DNA from: an uncultured Syntrophomonas sp.
GTDB taxonomy: Bacteria > Bacillota > Syntrophomonadia > Syntrophomonadales > Syntrophomonadaceae
Length of the DNA: 64,000 nt
Direction: 5' to 3'
Assembly (NCBI GenBank): GCA_964494735.1
Contig: CAZBSD010000004.1
Span: forward strand, 10,988-74,987
In this document: piece by piece, positions 2,344 through 62,054 of the stretch
Position numbering within the stretch: the first letter of the stretch is position 1
Layout of the letters: the number at the start of each line of letters is the position of its first letter
Notes under the pieces: model-generated
The model's input: the letters and a program-made list of their open reading frames with translations, nothing else
What the model was told of the DNA's origin: nothing
Databases searched by the model: none
Made by a program: the position numbers and the translations under genes

Positions 2344-2376
2344 AAATCCGCCGGCAGCAAGTGCGGGCGGATTTTG
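2344..2376 (+). terminator. rho-independent terminator-like hairpin downstream of the 1874..2284 gene
   Basis: AAATCCGCC-N13-GGCGGATTT is a 9-bp stem followed by a T run. Confidence 0.55.
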
Positions 2377-2377
2377 G

Positions 2378-2525
2378 GTGTCAAACAAGTTACATTCAGG
2401 CAGACTGAGCAAAAAAGGCTTAGAGCAAGGCATTCGGGAGCCCCGTGATTAAGGCGTACATGAGATACGTCGATTGAACGTGGATTCCGTATTAACGCAG
2501 CTATGGGCCTTTTTTGACGGTCTGA
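2378..2525. repeat. copy 1 of an unclassified ~135-148 nt structured intergenic repeat
   Basis: Hand alignment to 26085..26221 and 38982..39124 gives ~92-95% identity in the same orientation. It begins ..GTGTCAAACAAGTTACATTCAGGCAGAC and ends GGCCTTTTTTGACGGTCTGA. It lies between convergent genes. Confidence 0.85.
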
Positions 2526-2563
2526 ATCCGCCCGCATTAAGTGTGGGCGGATTCTTGCCTCTA

Positions 2564-5500
2564 TCAGCTGGCATTGCGAAGATATTCAGCCATCTTGGGC
2601 ATGAAATAGGGGATGATCTCGGGCAACATCTTGGGCATCAAAACCGCCATAGTAGGTGGCATCAGATCAGGCATCTGTTCCTCCATATAGGGCGGCATAG
2701 GGATAGCCTGACCTACCTTCTCCAGCATCTTGGGCATCACCTTGGGCAAAATATCGGGCAGCAGCCGCGGAAACAAGGCCGGCATTACTCCGTTCATCAT
2801 GGCTATCATCGGTTCTTTGAATACATCCGGGGCCTTGATGACAGTGGCCATCATGGTGCGATACATCTCCGGCATTGCTTGTATCATATCGGGAATCATC
2901 TCCGCCATCAGGTCGGCCATGCCCCATGGTGTCATCATGCGAATCATGGCTTCGAACACTGCCCATTTCTCGTCCATCACTGCATTGGAGGACGGCACTG
3001 TATGCCCCATGGCTTCAGCCGCCAAGGTGGCAAGATCCTTTATGTCGATCGGCAAGCCGCCTAAATCGCGGGAACGGGCTAACTGCACCCGGCAACAGGG
3101 GCAGGCGGTGAGCAGGGTGTCAGCGCCAGTATCGACTGCCTCCTGCACCCTCATGATACCGATCTTTTCAGCAACATCGGGGTCAGCCACCAGGCTCAGG
3201 ACCGCCCCGCAGCAGTGGGCATCGTACTGGTTGAAACGCATCTCCCGGAAATTGGAGCCCGGAATAGCGTTGATCAAAGTGCGCGGACCCTCAAAACGGA
3301 CACCGGCCCGACCCATATGGCAGGGGTCATGGTAGGTAACCCGGCGGGCAACGTCATTGGGGAGAGCAAACTCACCCGCCTTGATCTTTTCGGCCAGAAC
3401 ATCGGCATAATGCATGGCGTGGAAAGGATAATCGATGCCCCTTTCCTCAGCCCAGTGCCGGTAGTATATCTCCCACACCAGCCAGCAGGCAGGACAGGTG
3501 GTCACTATCCTGGTGGCGCCGGTCTCCCTCATCAGCTCAATATTGTGGGCGGCGGTTTCATCGAAAACCTCCCAGCGCCCGGAAACCAGCATAGGAATAC
3601 CACAGCAGTGTTCCCCTTTGCCCATGTAGGAGAATTCGATGCCGGCATCATTGAGCAAGAGTGCAGCCGACTGGGCTACGTCCTGTTCCACGTAACTGGA
3701 TGTACAACCAGGGAAAAATGCGTATTCGGCACTCTCCTTGATCATGGGTCGAATCTCCTCAGTAATCCAACCGTCCCGGTTCTTGGCATATTCACCCCAT
3801 ATGTTGCCCTGTTGGCGCATGGTATTGGCCATGATCTCAAAAGGCGGGAAGGTGTGGTAACCGCGTCCGTCTATCAGGAGACCGCGCAGTTTCAGCCATG
3901 ATGTCTCATTAGGCAAATCCAGCTGACAGGTTCGGTTGCACATCTCACAGGTCGTACACGCCATAAAGGTATTTACCGCCCGCTGGTCAAATTCTGCTTC
4001 ACCCTCCATGACCATCTTCAAGAAAGTCCATTTCCCCCGGGGTGATTGTGATTCCCATCCGCGCCCGTAATACTGGTCGCAATGGTCGATACAGTATCCG
4101 CACTGGGAGCACGCATAGGCATACCAGGCGATATCACCCGGTATCCCCTTTTTCTCCTCAAATACCTCCCCGCTTTCTTTGCCCTTGGCAAGGTTGCCGA
4201 AGACCCGGATAAGCGGTTCAATCGCGCTGGCCATCTTCAGTCCCCCGGCCACCAGAGTTCCATCCATTACCTTACCGGGATTCATCAGGCCCTCCGGGTC
4301 CAGGCTTCGTTTATAATTTACCAGGGCATCGAGATGTTCCTGACCCAAGATCTCTTTGGCAAATCCGCTGAAATATAGGCCGGTGGCGTAGGGACGGCCT
4401 CCGTGTTTTTGAGCCATTTTCAAGGCGGTCAGGGATAGACCATAGGCAAGGTTGAATTTAAACTTGCGTTCATCATGGGGAATGAAACCCAGCAGCACTA
4501 CCTCGCGCCGGTTGGTGGTAAATCCCTCAAGTATGAAGGGATGTGCGATCTCCTGGCTGGTATCGTTTATTACCTGGGCTAGCTTTTCAACCGGCACCAC
4601 CACTTCACTGGGTATAAGTGAGGGAGCGATGCGCTTGGCCCTCATGGGCTCGAAACGTGCCGCCCATTCATGTTCGGCTATCTCCGGATTCAGTATCTCG
4701 CCTTGATCCTTCACCGCCAAGGCCATTACGTCATCGCTGACCAAGTCACAACGGTCGGATGTACAGGCTAATAGAACTATGAATTTCTCCGGCAAGACCA
4801 CCTTATGGCTTTCTGCCACCGGATGACCGTGATGGAGATGAGGCGGAAAGCTGTTCCTCATTTTGGCAGCTTCAGGGTTGATAAAAGTCACCGACCAAAT
4901 CGGAACTTTGCGATTATAGATACCGGTTATGAAAGATGTCATCTGCTCAGCTGTACTGAAGGCAATCGCGTTGACATGCATTGGCTTCAATGGTTTGACC
5001 CGCAGTTTGATCTGACTGATGAAACCGGTGGTGCCGTTGGCTTCACTGACCAGATTGAGGTCCTTGCCCTGCAGGTTTACTATACTGCCATCTATCTGCA
5101 CTAATCGGGCCGAAAAAACATTATCTTTGAAATAACCGTACTCATAGCTGCCAATGCCAGCCCCACCCTGGGCCAGCCATCCCCCTACTGTAGATGATGG
5201 GGCACTGGTAGGATAGAGAGCCAGGGTCAGTCCCTTCTGATTGAGGTGATATTCCAGTTCATTCCAGACTACCGCAGGCTCCACAGTGGCACTGCGTTCC
5301 TCTTCGTTTATGGCGATTATCTTTTTCATGCGGTTAAATTCGACTACCAACCCGCCTTCGACCGGCAAAACACCCCCATACCCGGAGGTAGCCTTTCCTC
5401 TCGGGGTCAATCTGATTCTCTCCTGCCGTGCCATATTCATCAGATCGGTCAGTTCCTGCTCCGTCTCTGGCTGCACGATTCCATCGGGTACCGGATTACC

Positions 5501-26034: not shown

Positions 26035-26084
26035 TAAGTGCTGCAAAAAAACAAGGAGTCGGTTTTATGGAACGACTCCTTCAG

Positions 26085-26221
26085 GGTGTCAAACAAGTTG
26101 CATTCAGGCAGACCGAGCAAAAAAGGCATTCGGGAGCCCCGTGATTAAGGCGTGCATGAGGTACGTCGATTGAACGGGGATTTCGTATTAACGCAGCTAT
26201 GGGCCTTTTTTGACAGTCTGA
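26085..26221. repeat. copy 2 of the structured intergenic repeat (carries a 12-nt deletion)
   Basis: Seven substitutions relative to copy 1 by hand alignment. It lacks TTAGAGCAAGGC, which in copy 1 lies between two AAGGC direct repeats. It sits between the convergent radical SAM and DUF1285 genes. Confidence 0.85.
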
Positions 26222-26378
26222 AGGGATCGTCCTTATGGAACGACCCCTTGGTGATTGCATCAACATTCATCTATGATTTTGGTGTACAGCCCATCTAATG
26301 CCCTAAATCATGGCTGCTGGTATTAATCGACTGGATTCAACGAGGTCAGCCGGGGCTAGAGCATTGAAGGTCAGGCCC

Positions 26379-38881: not shown

Positions 38882-38981
38882 CCATACTTCATTGCCGAAA
38901 AAAAATGGTCGGCAAAAGGGTTGATGTTGGCGATCCGTTTAGGTTAACCATGTAAAGACTCAGCTAATGATATTCCTGTTG

Positions 38982-39124
38982 TTAGACAAGTTACATCCAG
39001 GCAGACCGAGCAAAAAAGGCTTAGAGCAAGGCATTCGGGAACCCCGTGATTAAGGCGTACAAGAGGTACGTCGATTGAACCGGGATTCCGTATTAACGCC
39101 GCTATAGGCCTTTTTTGGTCTGAC
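38982..39124. repeat. copy 3 of the structured intergenic repeat
   Basis: About 12 substitutions and a 3-nt deletion relative to copy 1 by hand alignment. Same orientation. It lies between convergent sodA and flxA. Confidence 0.85.
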
Positions 39125-39165
39125 GGGATTGGCCCCAGCCAATCCTGTATCTTTATTAACTTAAA

Positions 39166-48940: not shown

Positions 48941-49645
48941 ATGCGGTCTATATTGCGCAAGTTGTATCGGGGCCAGGATTTGAATGATGAGGAATACGCC
49001 CGCCTGGCAGGTTATGCGGATGAACTGCGTGCCAATTCGCCTCATTCCTACCAATTATTCTATGAGCGCTTCGCACCCATCCTTCACCGCGATTATGGTA
49101 TTCACCTGCCTCGCTTCTATTTCGGTATAGATGATGTCTATGAATATCTGCTCTCCCATCCGGAATTGACCGCTCGCCTCCGCACCGAGCCCCTGGATGC
49201 GACCGTTTTTCCCGCTCACCTGCGCGAATACCTCTTATCCCCCGAAGGCCAGAACGCCTTATATACGTCGCTCCTGCCGGCGCTGGAACACCCCGATTAT
49301 GGCCGGCCTGACAATAAGGAGCTGCCCCGTCCCCGCCTAACCGAGGCAGTCGTCAAATTCGAAAGCGGCAATCCTTTGAAAGAGACCGGGCTCAAGGCTC
49401 ATTTCAATCGCCTCATCGCCTTCCCGTTCGTAAGCCGGTTGCAGAGTGTGCGTTATCTGCGCGGTACCAAAGCCAGCCAGGACAAGATTGACATCATCAC
49501 CGGCAACTGTCTGGGAGGTATTTTTACCAACAAAGAGAAATCAATATATTATTATATATTCCTTACGGAGGACGACCGCAGTAAGGCCGAAAATGCTTGC
49601 CGACTTCTCAACCAGACTCTGTATGGAATCAGCGGCGGGGAATGA
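48941..49645 (+). CDS. hypothetical protein A of a four-gene cassette
   Basis: ATG 8 nt after AGGAG and 20 nt after the pdaA stop. 234 aa with no TM segment and no motif I recognise. Confidence 0.6.
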   Translation: MRSILRKLYRGQDLNDEEYARLAGYADELRANSPHSYQLFYERFAPILHRDYGIHLPRFYFGIDDVYEYLLSHPELTARLRTEPLDATVFPAHLREYLLSPEGQNALYTSLLPALEHPDYGRPDNKELPRPRLTEAVVKFESGNPLKETGLKAHFNRLIAFPFVSRLQSVRYLRGTKASQDKIDIITGNCLGGIFTNKEKSIYYYIFLTEDDRSKAENACRLLNQTLYGISGGE

Positions 49646-49649
49646 ACTC

Positions 49650-51116
49650 ATGCACACCATTATGGAAACACTGGCGGCGGGGCCGGTCGAACAAGATCTG
49701 TTCGGTTATTGGCGCAAGGAACTCGAACTGCGCCGGATGCTGAAGGACGCCCTCGACGGACCGACGGTTCACATCGAAAACCAGGCTCAATTCGATTTCC
49801 TCAGAAGAGGTCTTTTCTACGGCCCCCACCAGGATTCGTTTTTTAACGTACTATGGCGCAATATGGCGGAACCGGCGGTCATCACCATGGTGATGGATTC
49901 ATCGCCATCAGTCGTGGTGCAATACTTGGACTATCTTACTATTCATATGACTGATCAGCATCGCCCCGCCCCTTCCCTGCGGTTCTTGATAAATCTCTAT
50001 AATGAACATTGGCAGCCTCAATATGCCCGACTGATTCAGACCCTGGATGCTGAACAGTGCGGATACCTGGTTTCCCGCACCGGCAATGGGGACCTGCGCC
50101 GGATGCTGAAAGATCGCCTGGAGAAGATCAAGGATCATGCTGCCCATAATGAGCCCATGACTGGCGACAAACAGCCGGTGACGGCCTGGCCCAGTATCCA
50201 TGGCGATAAGGTAGAACTATTGTCGGCCGCCGCCACCGTGTTGCAGGGTTGGGACCAGGCCGGAGCTGTTCCAAACCAAAGCCTGGCGCGAGTGGAGACT
50301 CTTATGGATGGAGCCGAACTGCTGTTTCGGGCTGGATTGCTATCCGATTGTATGGCCGTGCTTAACCGGATGTTCTCCGATCGCGAACTGGAAAGACACT
50401 CCGCGCTGTTGTCGGCCACCGGTCCCCTGGGTGGGCGGCTGCTCCGGCTGTTGGACCGGGTGGTTCCTATATTTGGCCTGCTGGTGGATCCCTTCCATCC
50501 ACGCAGTCATGTCCTCAGCAATTACCGCAATCTATTCCCCGGTTGCAATCCCGATCCGGCTTCTCTGCTCTACCTTGACCTTTACGCCCTGGTGCTGGCC
50601 GGCTTGCAAAAACGACGCCATTATGCCAGCTTCGAGATAGTGCAAAAAGCATCCGCAATCCGATCCCTGTGTGATGATGACCGGCTGGTTCAACAATTGG
50701 TGGTATGGGGGCACAGCGGTGTTTTTAATGGTTCCGGACTATTAGACTTTCTAGGCTCCAAAATGATGCAGCGCCCCCACGAGACCCTGGCTGGTCTGGA
50801 AACTCTGCGCTATCTGCATATGCGGGGGGCGTTGTCCCTGGACAGGCCAACCGCCTCTGGGATGCTGTCTGTATTCCTGCAGCTTTTCTATTGGCTGCCC
50901 CACCCAAGCTTCATTAATAGCCAGCTTGTCAAACAGATTGGACCGGAGAGCGATGAGGAGGTTAGAAGAGAATCAGAACAGATTCTGGTCTCCTGGCACC
51001 GGGTCTGGCATGATAATAAGGATACTCCAGCGGTCCCGCCCCATCACCAGCAAAGCGGTGCAGAGCAGGCGCTGGATAAGATGATTCGCTTGAGCCGATC
51101 GATGGGGGTGTTATAG
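49650..51116 (+). CDS. hypothetical protein B (488 aa, apparently helical)
   Basis: ATG 4 nt after the stop of A, with GGGGA upstream. The ORF-track start at 49446 overlaps A and is unlikely. No recognisable motif. Confidence 0.6.
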   Translation: MHTIMETLAAGPVEQDLFGYWRKELELRRMLKDALDGPTVHIENQAQFDFLRRGLFYGPHQDSFFNVLWRNMAEPAVITMVMDSSPSVVVQYLDYLTIHMTDQHRPAPSLRFLINLYNEHWQPQYARLIQTLDAEQCGYLVSRTGNGDLRRMLKDRLEKIKDHAAHNEPMTGDKQPVTAWPSIHGDKVELLSAAATVLQGWDQAGAVPNQSLARVETLMDGAELLFRAGLLSDCMAVLNRMFSDRELERHSALLSATGPLGGRLLRLLDRVVPIFGLLVDPFHPRSHVLSNYRNLFPGCNPDPASLLYLDLYALVLAGLQKRRHYASFEIVQKASAIRSLCDDDRLVQQLVVWGHSGVFNGSGLLDFLGSKMMQRPHETLAGLETLRYLHMRGALSLDRPTASGMLSVFLQLFYWLPHPSFINSQLVKQIGPESDEEVRRESEQILVSWHRVWHDNKDTPAVPPHHQQSGAEQALDKMIRLSRSMGVL

Positions 51117-51117
51117 A

Positions 51118-52695
51118 TTGGAATCGGAAAATCCCACCATACAATATAACCAAATCATCGAGGAGATGCTGGCCCGACTGCGCAGCGACCTTGACCGTCA
51201 GATTAAACAGTGCCCTGAGTTCGGTGATCAGGATGGGCTGGACCAATACATTCTGGACTTGAATACCTTCTATTATGAAAGCTTCCATGACCATTTCATG
51301 CCTCGATACCGGCAAGCGATCGAGACCGACATGCGCCGGATTCATAATCTTAGCCGCCAGGAGGATTCGGTAAGGGCAGATTTGATTACATTGCTCAGAT
51401 TCCTGATAAGGTCTTTTAATCTGACTAAGGCTACTATGGGGCAATTGCATGTGCAGCGGGGAGAAATGGAATCACAGCTGCTGGCTCTGCAGACCAGCCT
51501 GGAAACCGGAAGTGTCGATCTTCTCTACCTGTTAAAGGAGCATGCCGAGGCCTGGGCATCCTTCCGAACCCAGTTGGATGTCGGCCGCACCATATCTTCG
51601 GACCGACAGCTGCTCAGCAGTCTCGAACATTCTCCCGTCTGCAGCCTGGCGGCCTCCCTGTTCCGAGTCTGGATGCCCACCAGCAACAAGGACAAACGTG
51701 ATTTCAACCGCTTGTTGGCGCAATGGCAGCTGGCTTTGAAACTGTTGCTGAAAATGCAGGAAACCCAATCCCCCGGCAAAGACTGGCTGACCGCCCAGCT
51801 GAATGAACTGGAAAAGATCGATGCCGGCTGGGATAACCGTAAGGTGCCAGCCCCCATTCGGGGATGGTACAAGCTTAACCTTCAGCCCACCTATCAGCTC
51901 TACCAGGAGGTGCTGAACGGCTCGACCGGGAGAAACGACCAACGCAGGATTATGCGGGTGGCCTCCCAGTTTCACGATTGGCTGCAGGCTTGGCTTATTG
52001 TTGTGGAGCGTTGCCTGGATTACTCCTCCCGAGGGTGGGACAACTGGATGGATCAGATTACGTCCCTATTAGGCCGAGATGAGAAATACTGGCTGGCCTG
52101 GGCTGACTACGCCCAGAAGAGCCTGCACTCCATCGACGAGCTAATAGTGGGTCTGTCAAACTTGCGCAGTGCCAGCTATGAACCATTCAGCGGCCGCAGT
52201 CGGCAGATCCTGACCGATGCCTGCCAATACCTGCTGCAGACTATCGGTGAACAGCCGGTTTCGCCTTTGCGAGCGGCGGCGGAAAAACTCCGGTCAGAGG
52301 CGGGGATGACTCTGCAGGGGATTGAAATCATGGCTGAACGGGAGACTCATATCCGGACCGCGATGGAAACATATACCGCTATCCGCACCGCCATCGGCTC
52401 AGACATCGATACACTTGAATCGGCCCAGCGGGACCTGGAGAAGATGCTCGACAAACGGGTTCTCGCCGACAAATTCGGGGATATGGATATAAAATTGGAT
52501 CATATCGTCATCCAAACCGGCGCCGCATTTCCCTCCGCCTATGTTCATCTGTTGGATAGAGCTCCTATCGAAACCAAGGCTTCCGATGCTCCGGCTGGTA
52601 ACGTCATTTACCAAGAAGGGGACATTTTCATAATCCGCTCGGGGGGCCGGAGCTATGAAGTAATACCCAGAATAATCGTGGCCGGGAAAGGATAA
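51118..52695 (+). CDS. hypothetical protein C (525 aa, helical/Trp-rich with a C-terminal beta-rich segment)
   Basis: TTG start 1 nt after the stop of B, with GGGGGTG 7 nt upstream. No recognisable motif. Confidence 0.6.
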   Translation: MESENPTIQYNQIIEEMLARLRSDLDRQIKQCPEFGDQDGLDQYILDLNTFYYESFHDHFMPRYRQAIETDMRRIHNLSRQEDSVRADLITLLRFLIRSFNLTKATMGQLHVQRGEMESQLLALQTSLETGSVDLLYLLKEHAEAWASFRTQLDVGRTISSDRQLLSSLEHSPVCSLAASLFRVWMPTSNKDKRDFNRLLAQWQLALKLLLKMQETQSPGKDWLTAQLNELEKIDAGWDNRKVPAPIRGWYKLNLQPTYQLYQEVLNGSTGRNDQRRIMRVASQFHDWLQAWLIVVERCLDYSSRGWDNWMDQITSLLGRDEKYWLAWADYAQKSLHSIDELIVGLSNLRSASYEPFSGRSRQILTDACQYLLQTIGEQPVSPLRAAAEKLRSEAGMTLQGIEIMAERETHIRTAMETYTAIRTAIGSDIDTLESAQRDLEKMLDKRVLADKFGDMDIKLDHIVIQTGAAFPSAYVHLLDRAPIETKASDAPAGNVIYQEGDIFIIRSGGRSYEVIPRIIVAGKG

Positions 52696-52699
52696 CCGT

Positions 52700-53968
52700 A
52701 TGCACGTAGTTATAGACATGGGCGACAAAAACACCGTACTGGCAGCCTGGCGAGAAGGTCAGCCCCTGGATGACCCGTCCATTCTGGTAAATTTACCAGG
52801 TCTTAACGATTCCACCACCGGGGTGAATGATGACCCCTGGAGCCGGGCCAGTTTATATCGCCATGTAACTAATCTGTACCGGGAATATCTGCTGCCCAGC
52901 CGGTTGTCAATCAGGTCTCTGGCAGCAGCCATACCAGATATATCCGGAGTGCCATTAAGGCGGACCCTGCTGGATGTTTTCGAGGAAGTATTGGGTTTGG
53001 AGGAAGCCATCATTGTCCCTCGCTTCCTGGCCATGGCCGCCGGCTGGCAGCTCCACAGTCCACAGTCCTTGGGGAATATAATGGTGCTGGATGCTCAAGA
53101 TGAAGAGGAAGAAGTCGCCTTCATCAGCGCCTGCCCCGATGTGACGCTCACCCTGGAAGGACAGTATCCCGGAAATCTTCGGACCATCCGGGAAGCGGCT
53201 GCCCGACTGGGGTTTCTGTCCTCTTCCGGGTGGAACCTCGACCACCTTTACCTTCTGAATAATGTTGGAGCCAACAGCCAGATAAGGCGGTTGATATCGG
53301 GCCTGCCCAGCCGGGTGACCATCCACAATGGTGACAATCCTGGCCGGGCTGTGATGGAGGGTCTGGTTGCACACGTATATCAGGGCTTCTCTCCAGGGAG
53401 ATTAAGCGTGATTTATCCTTTTGACTTTTACCTGGCCAGCTTCGACCAGGAGGAACAAATGAATTCCATCCACAGGTTGCCTTTCGATACCAACAATCTT
53501 GAGCTCGACTGCACCTCCTGCTACAGGCTGGCCCGTCTGGTCACGACAGATATTCCCGCCAGTGAGGCAGACCCGGAGCAGTTACGGCTCGGCATCTTCG
53601 AGATCGGCCACCAGGACCGCATCGAGCTAGACAATTTATCACTGGCTCAATCAATACTCAATATAGATTGCTGCCGCACCGATCTGCCTGACCGGGTGGA
53701 CCTGATCCTGGATATGGCAGCCGCCGTTATCCGTCCCGACCTGGACTCCGGCCGTGATGAGGGAGACCTTCTAGATCCGGCATCCTTTTGGGAACACTAC
53801 CACAACAGGCTCTCCCAGGACCATACCATTGGGCAACTATCCACACCAGCCCCTGACCCATCATCATCTTCAAGCGATCCGGCCGTCACTTTCTCCCCCC
53901 TGGACAACCAGATAGCTGTTACCCTGGCCCGGCTGCAATCACTATTGGGCCAGTGGAAACATTTCTAG
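52700..53968 (+). CDS. divergent Hsp70/EutJ-like ASKHA-fold protein (protein D) with a ~190-aa C-terminal domain of unknown function
   Basis: ATG 4 nt after the stop of C. Five segments appear in the order expected for the fold. [13 protein letters not shown] is phosphate-1-like. [40 protein letters not shown] parallels DnaK VP....AQR.A..[38 protein letters not shown] sits at the phosphate-2 position without glycines. [16 protein letters not shown] sits at the adenosine-motif position. [11 protein letters not shown] matches NPDEAVA.GAA. Confidence 0.6.
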   Translation: [422 protein letters not shown]

Positions 53969-54799: not shown

Positions 54800-54836
54800 A
54801 AAATACCGCTGGCCATCCCGCCAGCGGTATTTTCTT
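54800..54836. terminator. bidirectional rho-independent terminator
   Basis: AAAATACCGCTGGC-CATCCC-GCCAGCGGTATTTT is an 11-bp stem flanked by A and T runs. It lies between convergent satP and the glucosaminidase gene. Confidence 0.8.
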
Positions 54837-62008: not shown

Positions 62009-62054
62009 AAAAAATCAGGGTTTCAGCCGCGAGTACTGAAACCCTGATTTTTTC
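62009..62054. terminator. bidirectional rho-independent terminator
   Basis: AAAAAATCAGGGTTTCAG-N9-CTGAAACCCTGATTTTTT is a 14-bp stem flanked by A6/T6. It lies between the convergent yitJ-like gene and icd. Confidence 0.85.

Follow-up and report, generated by a model that had tools for sequence, protein, structure and literature searches.

Element copies in the window

Three copies of an intergenic element lie on the + strand of the window (the whole stretch of DNA analysed, 64,000 nt from an uncultured Syntrophomonas sp.), each between convergent ORFs and at the places reported in the first-pass annotation (Table 1). The three were recovered as one family of repeats using MAFFT and a repeat finder, and they were the sole matches of a covariance model in the window, scoring 105-141 bits (E 1e-23 to 1e-32), far beyond chance. 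Matches of the encoded proteins assign the host to the Syntrophomonadaceae. Each copy is 139-149 nt long, the flanks differ among all three, and about 3 of the 7 convergent-gene junctions in the window are occupied. Gap-free pairwise identity was 94.9% between copies 1 and 2, 91.8% between 1 and 3, and 91.0% between 2 and 3, so that the range of ~92-95% estimated earlier by hand is now 91-95%. The alignment also shows both deletions described at that stage, 12 nt between AAGGC repeats in copy 2 and GAC missing from the 3' closing arm of copy 3, the left terminus of which is mutated (TGTTAGAC).

The closing helix proposed earlier, CAGAC..CAAAAAAGGC / GCCTTTTTTG..GTCTG, is present, with arms (CAGACCGAGCAAAAAAGGC and GCCTTTTTTGACGGTCTG) that form inverted repeats of ~19 nt. 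The ~25 conserved nucleotides noted 5' of this helix were found again as a 25-nt extension outside it, and conservation does stop abruptly at GTCTG(A) on the 3' side. The element termini are without clean inverted repeats, their likeness being limited to GTGTCAAACAAG and CGTCAAAAAAG. In the apical hairpin, previously given as CGTRC-N5-GTACG, copy 3 pairs perfectly, whereas copy 1 contains a C/A mismatch and copy 2 a G.T wobble.

Table 1. Positions of the element copies, their parts and their flanking hairpins in the window
Feature	Position	Strand	Remarks
Copy 1, left palindrome (29 nt)	2345-2373	+	AATCCGCCGGCAGCAAGTGCGGGCGGATT; target-site duplication; terminator hairpin of upstream gene 1874-2284
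Copy 1, 2 nt before element	2374-2375	+	either flank or element
Element copy 1	about 2376-2524	+	covariance model match 2401-2525, 141.4 bits
Copy 1, 5' extension	2376-2400	+	GGGTGTCAAACAAGTTACATTCAGG; precedes structured core 2401-2524
Copy 1, conserved heart	2446-2478	+	columns invariant in 7-sequence alignment
Copy 1, internal loop, 5' strand	2446-2453	+	TGATTAAG
Copy 1, apical hairpin	2454-2471	+	GCGTAC-ATGAG-ATACGTC
Copy 1, internal loop, 3' strand	2472-2478	+	GATTGAA
Copy 1, right palindrome (29 nt)	2525-2553	+	AATCCGCCCGCATTAAGTGTGGGCGGATT; adjoins element 3' end GTCTG directly
Copy 2, left palindrome (29 nt)	26053-26081	+	AAGGAGTCGGTTTTATGGAACGACTCCTT; target-site duplication; 23/29 identical to single hairpin of L008
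Element copy 2	26082-26220	+	with 12-nt deletion; covariance model match 26109-26221, 105.5 bits
Copy 2, right palindrome (29 nt)	26221-26249	+	AAGGGATCGTCCTTATGGAACGACCCCTT; 25/29 identical to hairpin of L008
Copy 3, possible left remnant, 3' arm	38972-38979		ATTCCTGT; judged by eye
Element copy 3	38980-39122	+	3-nt deletion in 3' closing arm; covariance model match 39002-39123, 137.3 bits
Copy 3, terminator hairpin	39123-39148	+	ACGGGATTGGCCCCAGCCAATCCTGT; adjoins copy 3 3' end; terminator-like match
Element ends			5' GGTGTCAA...; 3' ...GACGGTCTG

Two other regions of the window were recorded separately. Three close-packed ORFs of 556, 525 and 422 aa (49446-53968, + strand, gaps of 1 and 4 nt) follow a 525-nt gap and gave no Pfam match at E <= 0.01 and no NCBIfam match at E <= 1e-3; within the 556-aa ORF, a 32-nt sequence is repeated (49725 and 50091), and the start of the 422-aa ORF (MHVVIDMGDKNT...) looks by eye like an actin/Hsp70-type ATPase. 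At 2591-2785, three diverged 60-nt direct repeats lie in the 3' end of a 1037-aa FAD/Fe-S (CCG-domain) gene on the - strand and encode a repetitive Met/Pro-rich C-terminal tail (...MPKMLPEIIPYFMPKM...).

Homologues in other genomes

Homologues were sought by scanning genomes and metagenomes with an exact pattern of the conserved core, a search by which relatives of the L023 or L015 type (below) are missed. Four were found at unrelated loci in other Bacillota: L001, a Bacillota MAG; L002, Syntrophomonas sp. UBA1376 (identical to L003 and L004); and L005 and L006, both metagenome contigs. Together with the three window copies, these gave seven sequences from five lineages, which were used for the covariance model and the fold alignment. 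Between subfamilies, the 5' region shows no conservation. A convergent host ORF runs into the 3' arm of the element in L001 and L006, so that its final codons and stop lie there, and the element of L005 and L006 has an antisense orientation to the genes on either side; host ORFs ending inside the element and its antisense orientation are properties of a selfish insertion and not of a conserved gene. The two ORFs concerned are a RidA-like ORF (L001, 750-779, ...VKKAQ*) and a 342-aa ORF (L006, 2394-2418, ...GKKSQ*), and in both the TAG stop is supplied by the reverse complement of the element in that frame.

The copies of L001 and L005 contain a nested block of ~110-145 nt (L001, ~860-1000, - strand; L005, 6258-6372) made of ~47-nt units ending in ATTAAKGTTGC, located in the 5' arm in L001 and, inverted, in the 3' arm in L005. 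The block has a small hairpin followed by GATTAATG, resembling the core of the element itself, and in L001 the ~47-nt unit also occurs ~600 nt away as a two-copy tandem array (~1630-1720).

Another relative (L023) has, at its SodA locus, a decayed and diverged copy that scores 37 bits by the covariance model. This partly decayed homologue lies directly after sodA (L023, L024, and L025 at 3145-3274; 92% SodA orthologue), with the apical hairpin kept and the 3' closing arm degenerate. Both strands of its internal loop are altered, from GAUUAAG / GAUUGAA to GGCAA / GGCAAC.

Rfam 15 at the gathering threshold gave no match in the window, L001, L002, L005 or L006, in line with the first-pass view that the RNA class is an unrecognised one, and a permissive Rfam scan of 2300-2600 (copy 1) returned two chance-level matches (E ~9). 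No tRNA or tmRNA gene was present, a distant blastn search with copy 1 returned no plasmid relatives from PLSDB and no phage relatives from INPHARED, and a pattern scan of viral contigs gave no match. A protein-coding reading was considered for the - strand frame, which is the sole one open across copies 1-3 and L002 and in which both indels are multiples of 3; it was rejected on a stop in L006, on non-conservative residue changes caused by helix covariation, and on the lack of a start codon or ribosome-binding site.

Fold and selection

The consensus fold comprises, from 5' to 3', the closing helix, a second helix, a 12-bp helix, a 7+7-nt internal loop and a 7-bp apical hairpin. Fold statistics were computed on a 7-sequence MAFFT alignment that was not fitted to structure. 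In this alignment, 93.8% of cells were paired, and 13 pairs showed changes on both sides, compared with 5.6 ± 1.5 in column shuffles (reached by 0/500 shuffles) and 1-6 in slid controls. One G·U pair is invariant (7/7 sequences), G·U cells number 22 vs 2 A·C cells, and the + strand fold is more stable than that of the - strand under RNA and DNA energy parameters alike. Covariation, G·U excess and + strand stability thus indicate that the fold is selected in a single-stranded state and on one strand, and the earlier structural proposal is upheld in the homologues from other genomes, in which the closing and inner helices are kept through compensatory changes. The + strand thus forms a three-helix rod that is under purifying selection as RNA or single-stranded DNA.

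Helix sequences vary freely between genera, whereas the two strands of the internal loop (UGAUUAAG / GAUUGAA) are invariant and alike, giving the loop a conserved pseudo-two-fold symmetry. We infer that a mobilising protein, probably acting as a dimer, recognises the element at this loop. The joint change of both loop strands in L023 would fit a co-evolving protein-loop pair.

Flanking hairpins and element-free loci

Copies 1 and 2 each lie between two palindromes of 29 nt. The left and right palindromes are 25/29 identical at copy 1 and 23/29 identical at copy 2, while those of copy 1 and copy 2 are 12/29 identical to each other, i.e., unrelated; the palindromes are therefore a property of the locus and not of the element. 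These duplicated terminator hairpins, absent from the first-pass annotation, are the most informative feature of the system. At copy 3, the evidence is weaker, since of the left hairpin a possible 3'-arm remnant alone survives. The GTCTG end stands directly at the foot of a hairpin in copies 1-3 and in L002, and the length of the duplication is uneven: 29 nt at copy 1, 29 nt at copy 2, a remnant at copy 3, and an 11-nt half-hairpin in L002. An obvious flanking duplication was not seen in L001, L005 or L006. In the left palindrome of copy 2, a G-C pair has become A-T through compensated changes, which suggests that both hairpin copies at this locus still function as hairpins.

Orthologous loci were reached via the flanking proteins, and element-free sites were found for all three copies. 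For copy 2, L008 and L009 (radical SAM orthologue 91% identical, same neighbour genes) lack the element and align with the window locus on both flanks, L008 base for base, which makes it the clearest case; a single hairpin (AAGGGGTCGTTCTCATGGAATGACCCCTT) stands where the window has two hairpin copies and the element, and the flank beyond the right palindrome of copy 2 (GGTGATT...) runs on as in L008. In a third relative (L011, 83% orthologue), the spacer at this locus is 45 nt long and holds one hairpin without the element. For copy 1, L020 (85% orthologue) has a single CCGCCCG...CGGGCGG bidirectional terminator hairpin, and for copy 3, L022 (97% SodA orthologue) lacks the element and contains the homologous hairpin, ACGGGATTG...CCAATCCCGT, a single time. 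A filled site thus differs from an element-free one by the element and one extra hairpin copy, as results from an insertion that duplicates its whole palindromic target. Orthologous element-free sites show insertion polymorphism, and with it mobility, directly.

Paired hairpin copies differ at 14-20% of positions and element copies at 5-9%; the insertions are accordingly old, and the polarity of the change (insertion, or loss via recombination between the repeats) is unprovable, while parsimony across three outgroups favours insertion over loss. Two unoccupied convergent junctions of the window carry perfect bidirectional terminator palindromes, one at 54800-54833 (14-bp stem, A4/T4 flanks) and one at 62009-62053 (18-bp stem, A6/T6 flanks), and both are potential target sites.

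Two further readings of these loci were set aside. The flanking hairpins were considered as element-borne, in the IS110-like manner, or as an antiterminator, and this was rejected, as each belongs to its locus and corresponds to the one hairpin at the element-free orthologous site. L022 was considered as a deletion footprint of the element, and local alignment was no better than shuffles (332/500 score as well). L022 does have a partial second 3' hairpin arm (CAGCTAATCCCGT) at 1072-1150, 24 nt downstream of the complete hairpin, and the left flank of copy 3 in the window has a similar CAGCTAAT...CCTGT.

A different long-hairpin element occupies the orthologous site of copy 1 in L015 (3412-3636; GCA_034678805.1, JAXDBN010000259.1; 88% flanking protein). 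It has the 5' module alone in common with the window element (AAAAAGCTTATTGCAAGGTAATCGGGAG vs AAAAGGCTTAGAGCAAGGCATTCGGGAG, 22/28 identical). The apices of the two are unrelated, and the L015 element gives no match to the covariance model, which suggests either a wider modular superfamily or an insertion hot spot.

Interpretation and alternatives

Repetition, insertion polymorphism, hairpin duplication and a conserved strand-specific fold are all observed, and the element is probably a non-coding, non-autonomous, MITE-like element (~125-150 bp) that is moved in trans and targets and duplicates terminator palindromes. As expected of a MITE, it is small, non-coding and dispersed in copies with unrelated flanks, and it is absent from orthologous sites of all three copies (L008, L009 and L011 for copy 2, L020 for copy 1, L022 for copy 3). 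A target-site duplication is found at copies 1 and 2, at 29 nt far longer than usual, whereas copy 3, L001, L005 and L006 have a partial one or none. The targeting and duplication of inverted repeats of variable sequence, the mark of IS1630-type insertion, is seen in the two unrelated 29-nt palindromes. Among the three options left by the first-pass annotation (small RNA, 3'-UTR or terminator-associated element, mobile element), the mobile element has thereby gained the orthologous sites without it, and the stand-alone small RNA has received no positive support. The element family is new and narrowly distributed, structured and non-autonomous, and it targets and duplicates terminator hairpins.

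A Pfam scan of 28 window ORFs returned housekeeping genes or no match, with neither a transposase nor an autonomous parent among them, and for this reason the mechanism is conjectural and the enzyme class a guess. Insertion probably takes place between gene 3' ends, at the 5' foot of the palindromic hairpin of an intrinsic terminator, and a trans-acting transposase would perform two strand transfers, one on each side of the palindrome; we infer staggered cuts across it. The palindrome may be extruded as a cruciform or hairpin at transfer, with its feet adjacent, and gap repair would then duplicate it, copying the whole palindrome to give the order hairpin - element - hairpin. In that order, the terminator is kept by both flanking genes and little harm is done.

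A double-stranded DNA DDE mechanism alone leaves the selected, strand-specific, single-stranded fold unexplained. A further reading is a structure-guided system of undescribed type, in which a single-stranded rod (RNA or DNA) offers its two-fold symmetric loop to a dimeric recombinase that reads hairpin shape in both element and target, and so integrates at any terminator palindrome and duplicates it; we rate this as rather unlikely. The structural evidence (strong covariation, the invariant G·U pair, the ratio of 22 G·U to 2 A·C, the greater stability of the + strand, and loops unchanged across genera) is also what would be seen in a multi-copy gene for a trans-acting small RNA or a protein-sequestering RNA, the loop binding a protein or a target RNA and the spread being incidental. 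Element copies that are less diverged than the flanking duplicated hairpins, and a terminator hairpin after the element in L002 and copy 3, would agree with such a gene, and ssr9 of ISPpu9 is a precedent for a small-RNA gene moving as its own module (PMC12288879), by which an sRNA gene and mobility are not mutually exclusive. No sigma-70-like promoter was found in, before or near any copy, however; the 5' region is unconserved between subfamilies, orientation relative to the neighbours is inconsistent, with L005 and L006 antisense to both and copies 1 and 2 enclosed by two terminators, and the decayed copy in L023, the host ORFs running into the element and the lack of a matching Rfam family also speak against a gene. 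On these grounds, the stand-alone small RNA is unlikely.

Two further routes of mobilisation start from the strand-specific fold. It holds with DNA energy parameters and tolerates G.T pairs, and the element might be single-stranded DNA mobilised by an HUH/Y1 enzyme in the manner of an IS200/IS605 PATE or of REPIN-RAYT, with the hairpin and loop as a one-strand recognition and cleavage site. The three window copies share one orientation, the elements are extragenic and at gene 3' ends, and the two like half-loops around the hairpin are reminiscent of iterons flanking the hairpin of a nick site. Target-site duplications do not accompany the insertion of IS200/IS605 elements or REPINs, whereas a 29-nt duplication is documented here. 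There is also no Y1 transposase gene among the scanned window ORFs and no REP-type GTAG or CGTC tag (criteria of PMC3733652), and this route is very improbable. GC skew, negative over most of the window, weakly suggests that the folded strand is not the lagging-strand template, and this replication-strand argument was set aside as too weak. A SINE-like retro-element, spreading by target-primed reverse transcription, would have a + strand RNA intermediate, which would explain both the RNA-type structural selection and the variable lengths of the duplications (29, 29 and 11 nt); the strand-specific structure rich in G·U pairs and the 5' region, variable or truncated between subfamilies, would agree with this. 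Against it, neither the surroundings of the element nor the scanned window ORFs yielded a reverse transcriptase, the element lacks a 3' A-tail or any other priming motif, and the duplications are bounded by palindrome feet and not by random nicks. To our knowledge, there is no bacterial precedent of such small size, and we regard this origin as the most doubtful one, with scarcely any probability.

Implications

Read as a MITE-like element, the repeat is a clean sequence-level example, outside the Mollicutes and in miniature, non-coding form, of a mobile element that goes into terminator palindromes with duplication of the whole hairpin, an insertion strategy nearly harmless to the host, as both neighbours keep a terminator. 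Whole-palindrome duplication, cross-genus covariation and the invariant symmetric loop point to a possible recognition of DNA or RNA shape over sequence. Should the mobilising enzyme be found, it would shed light on the choice of structured targets by transposases and be relevant to hairpin-targeting tools. The element explains enlarged, repeat-containing intergenic regions in Syntrophomonadaceae genomes, and annotators are cautioned against labelling these repeats as sRNA genes or the duplicated hairpins as independent terminators.

Comparison with known systems

IS200/IS605-derived PATEs have subterminal hairpins at both ends and insert 3' of a fixed tetra- or pentanucleotide without target duplication. 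Membership in this group, or identity with an omega/reRNA, was rejected, since a duplication is present, the left flanks share no motif, and the HEARO and IS605-orfB models of Rfam gave no match even at E <= 10. Class C group II introns, which consist of ribozyme domains I-VI, measure at least ~600 nt and insert after a terminator stem-loop without duplication, were likewise rejected for an element of 125-150 nt that makes a duplication and has no group II intron match in Rfam.

Like MITEs and palindromic repeats (ERIC/IRU, Correia/NEMIS, RUP, BOX, bcr1, RPE), the element is small, non-coding, multi-copy, intergenic and folds into a long hairpin; such repeats too are present or absent between relatives and may give their neighbours stop codons or terminators. 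Typical MITEs have target duplications of 2-9 bp and clear terminal inverted repeats, whereas here an entire 29-nt terminator palindrome is duplicated, the internal helices covary across genera, and the loops are invariant.

With the REP/REPIN repeats of RAYT (Y1) systems, the element shares extragenic hairpins at gene 3' ends, selection on arm pairing, and single-strand recognition. REPs are units of 20-40 nt with GTAG/CGTC tags, and a REP survey reported none in Bacillota (PMC3733652). Their insertion involves no target duplication, and a genome usually has tens to hundreds of copies. Membership was rejected on the length of 125-150 nt, the 29-nt duplication, the lack of a tag at the hairpin foot, and the lack of a Y1 gene among the scanned ORFs. 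The short sRNA module ssr9 of ISPpu9 (IS110 family) is moved into extragenic palindromes by a transposase encoded elsewhere (PMC12288879). IS110 recombination is guided by a bridge RNA at a specific core and leaves no long duplication, unlike that of the element, and the palindrome adjacent to ISPpu9 is carried by ISPpu9 itself (A box), whereas the palindromes flanking the element are locus-specific and match the element-free site.

Whole-palindrome duplication is unusual, with a precedent in the IS30 family. As far as the cited descriptions go, IS1630 of Mycoplasma fermentans inserts at variable inverted repeats and duplicates them (PMC2853133, PMC3317919, PMC7648426), and ISMhom-1 behaves in the same way (PMC7648426). 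In those descriptions, as here, insertion sites are intergenic or at 3' ends, the whole inverted repeat is duplicated (16-26 bp for IS1630, 29 bp for the element), and the flanking ORFs and terminators are left intact. IS1630 and ISMhom-1 are autonomous insertion sequences of ~1.2-1.4 kb from Mollicutes hosts that encode a DDE transposase and are bounded by 27-bp terminal inverted repeats, whereas the present element measures 125-150 bp, has no ORF, and is a full-length hairpin under strand-specific structural selection; the likeness is one of behaviour.
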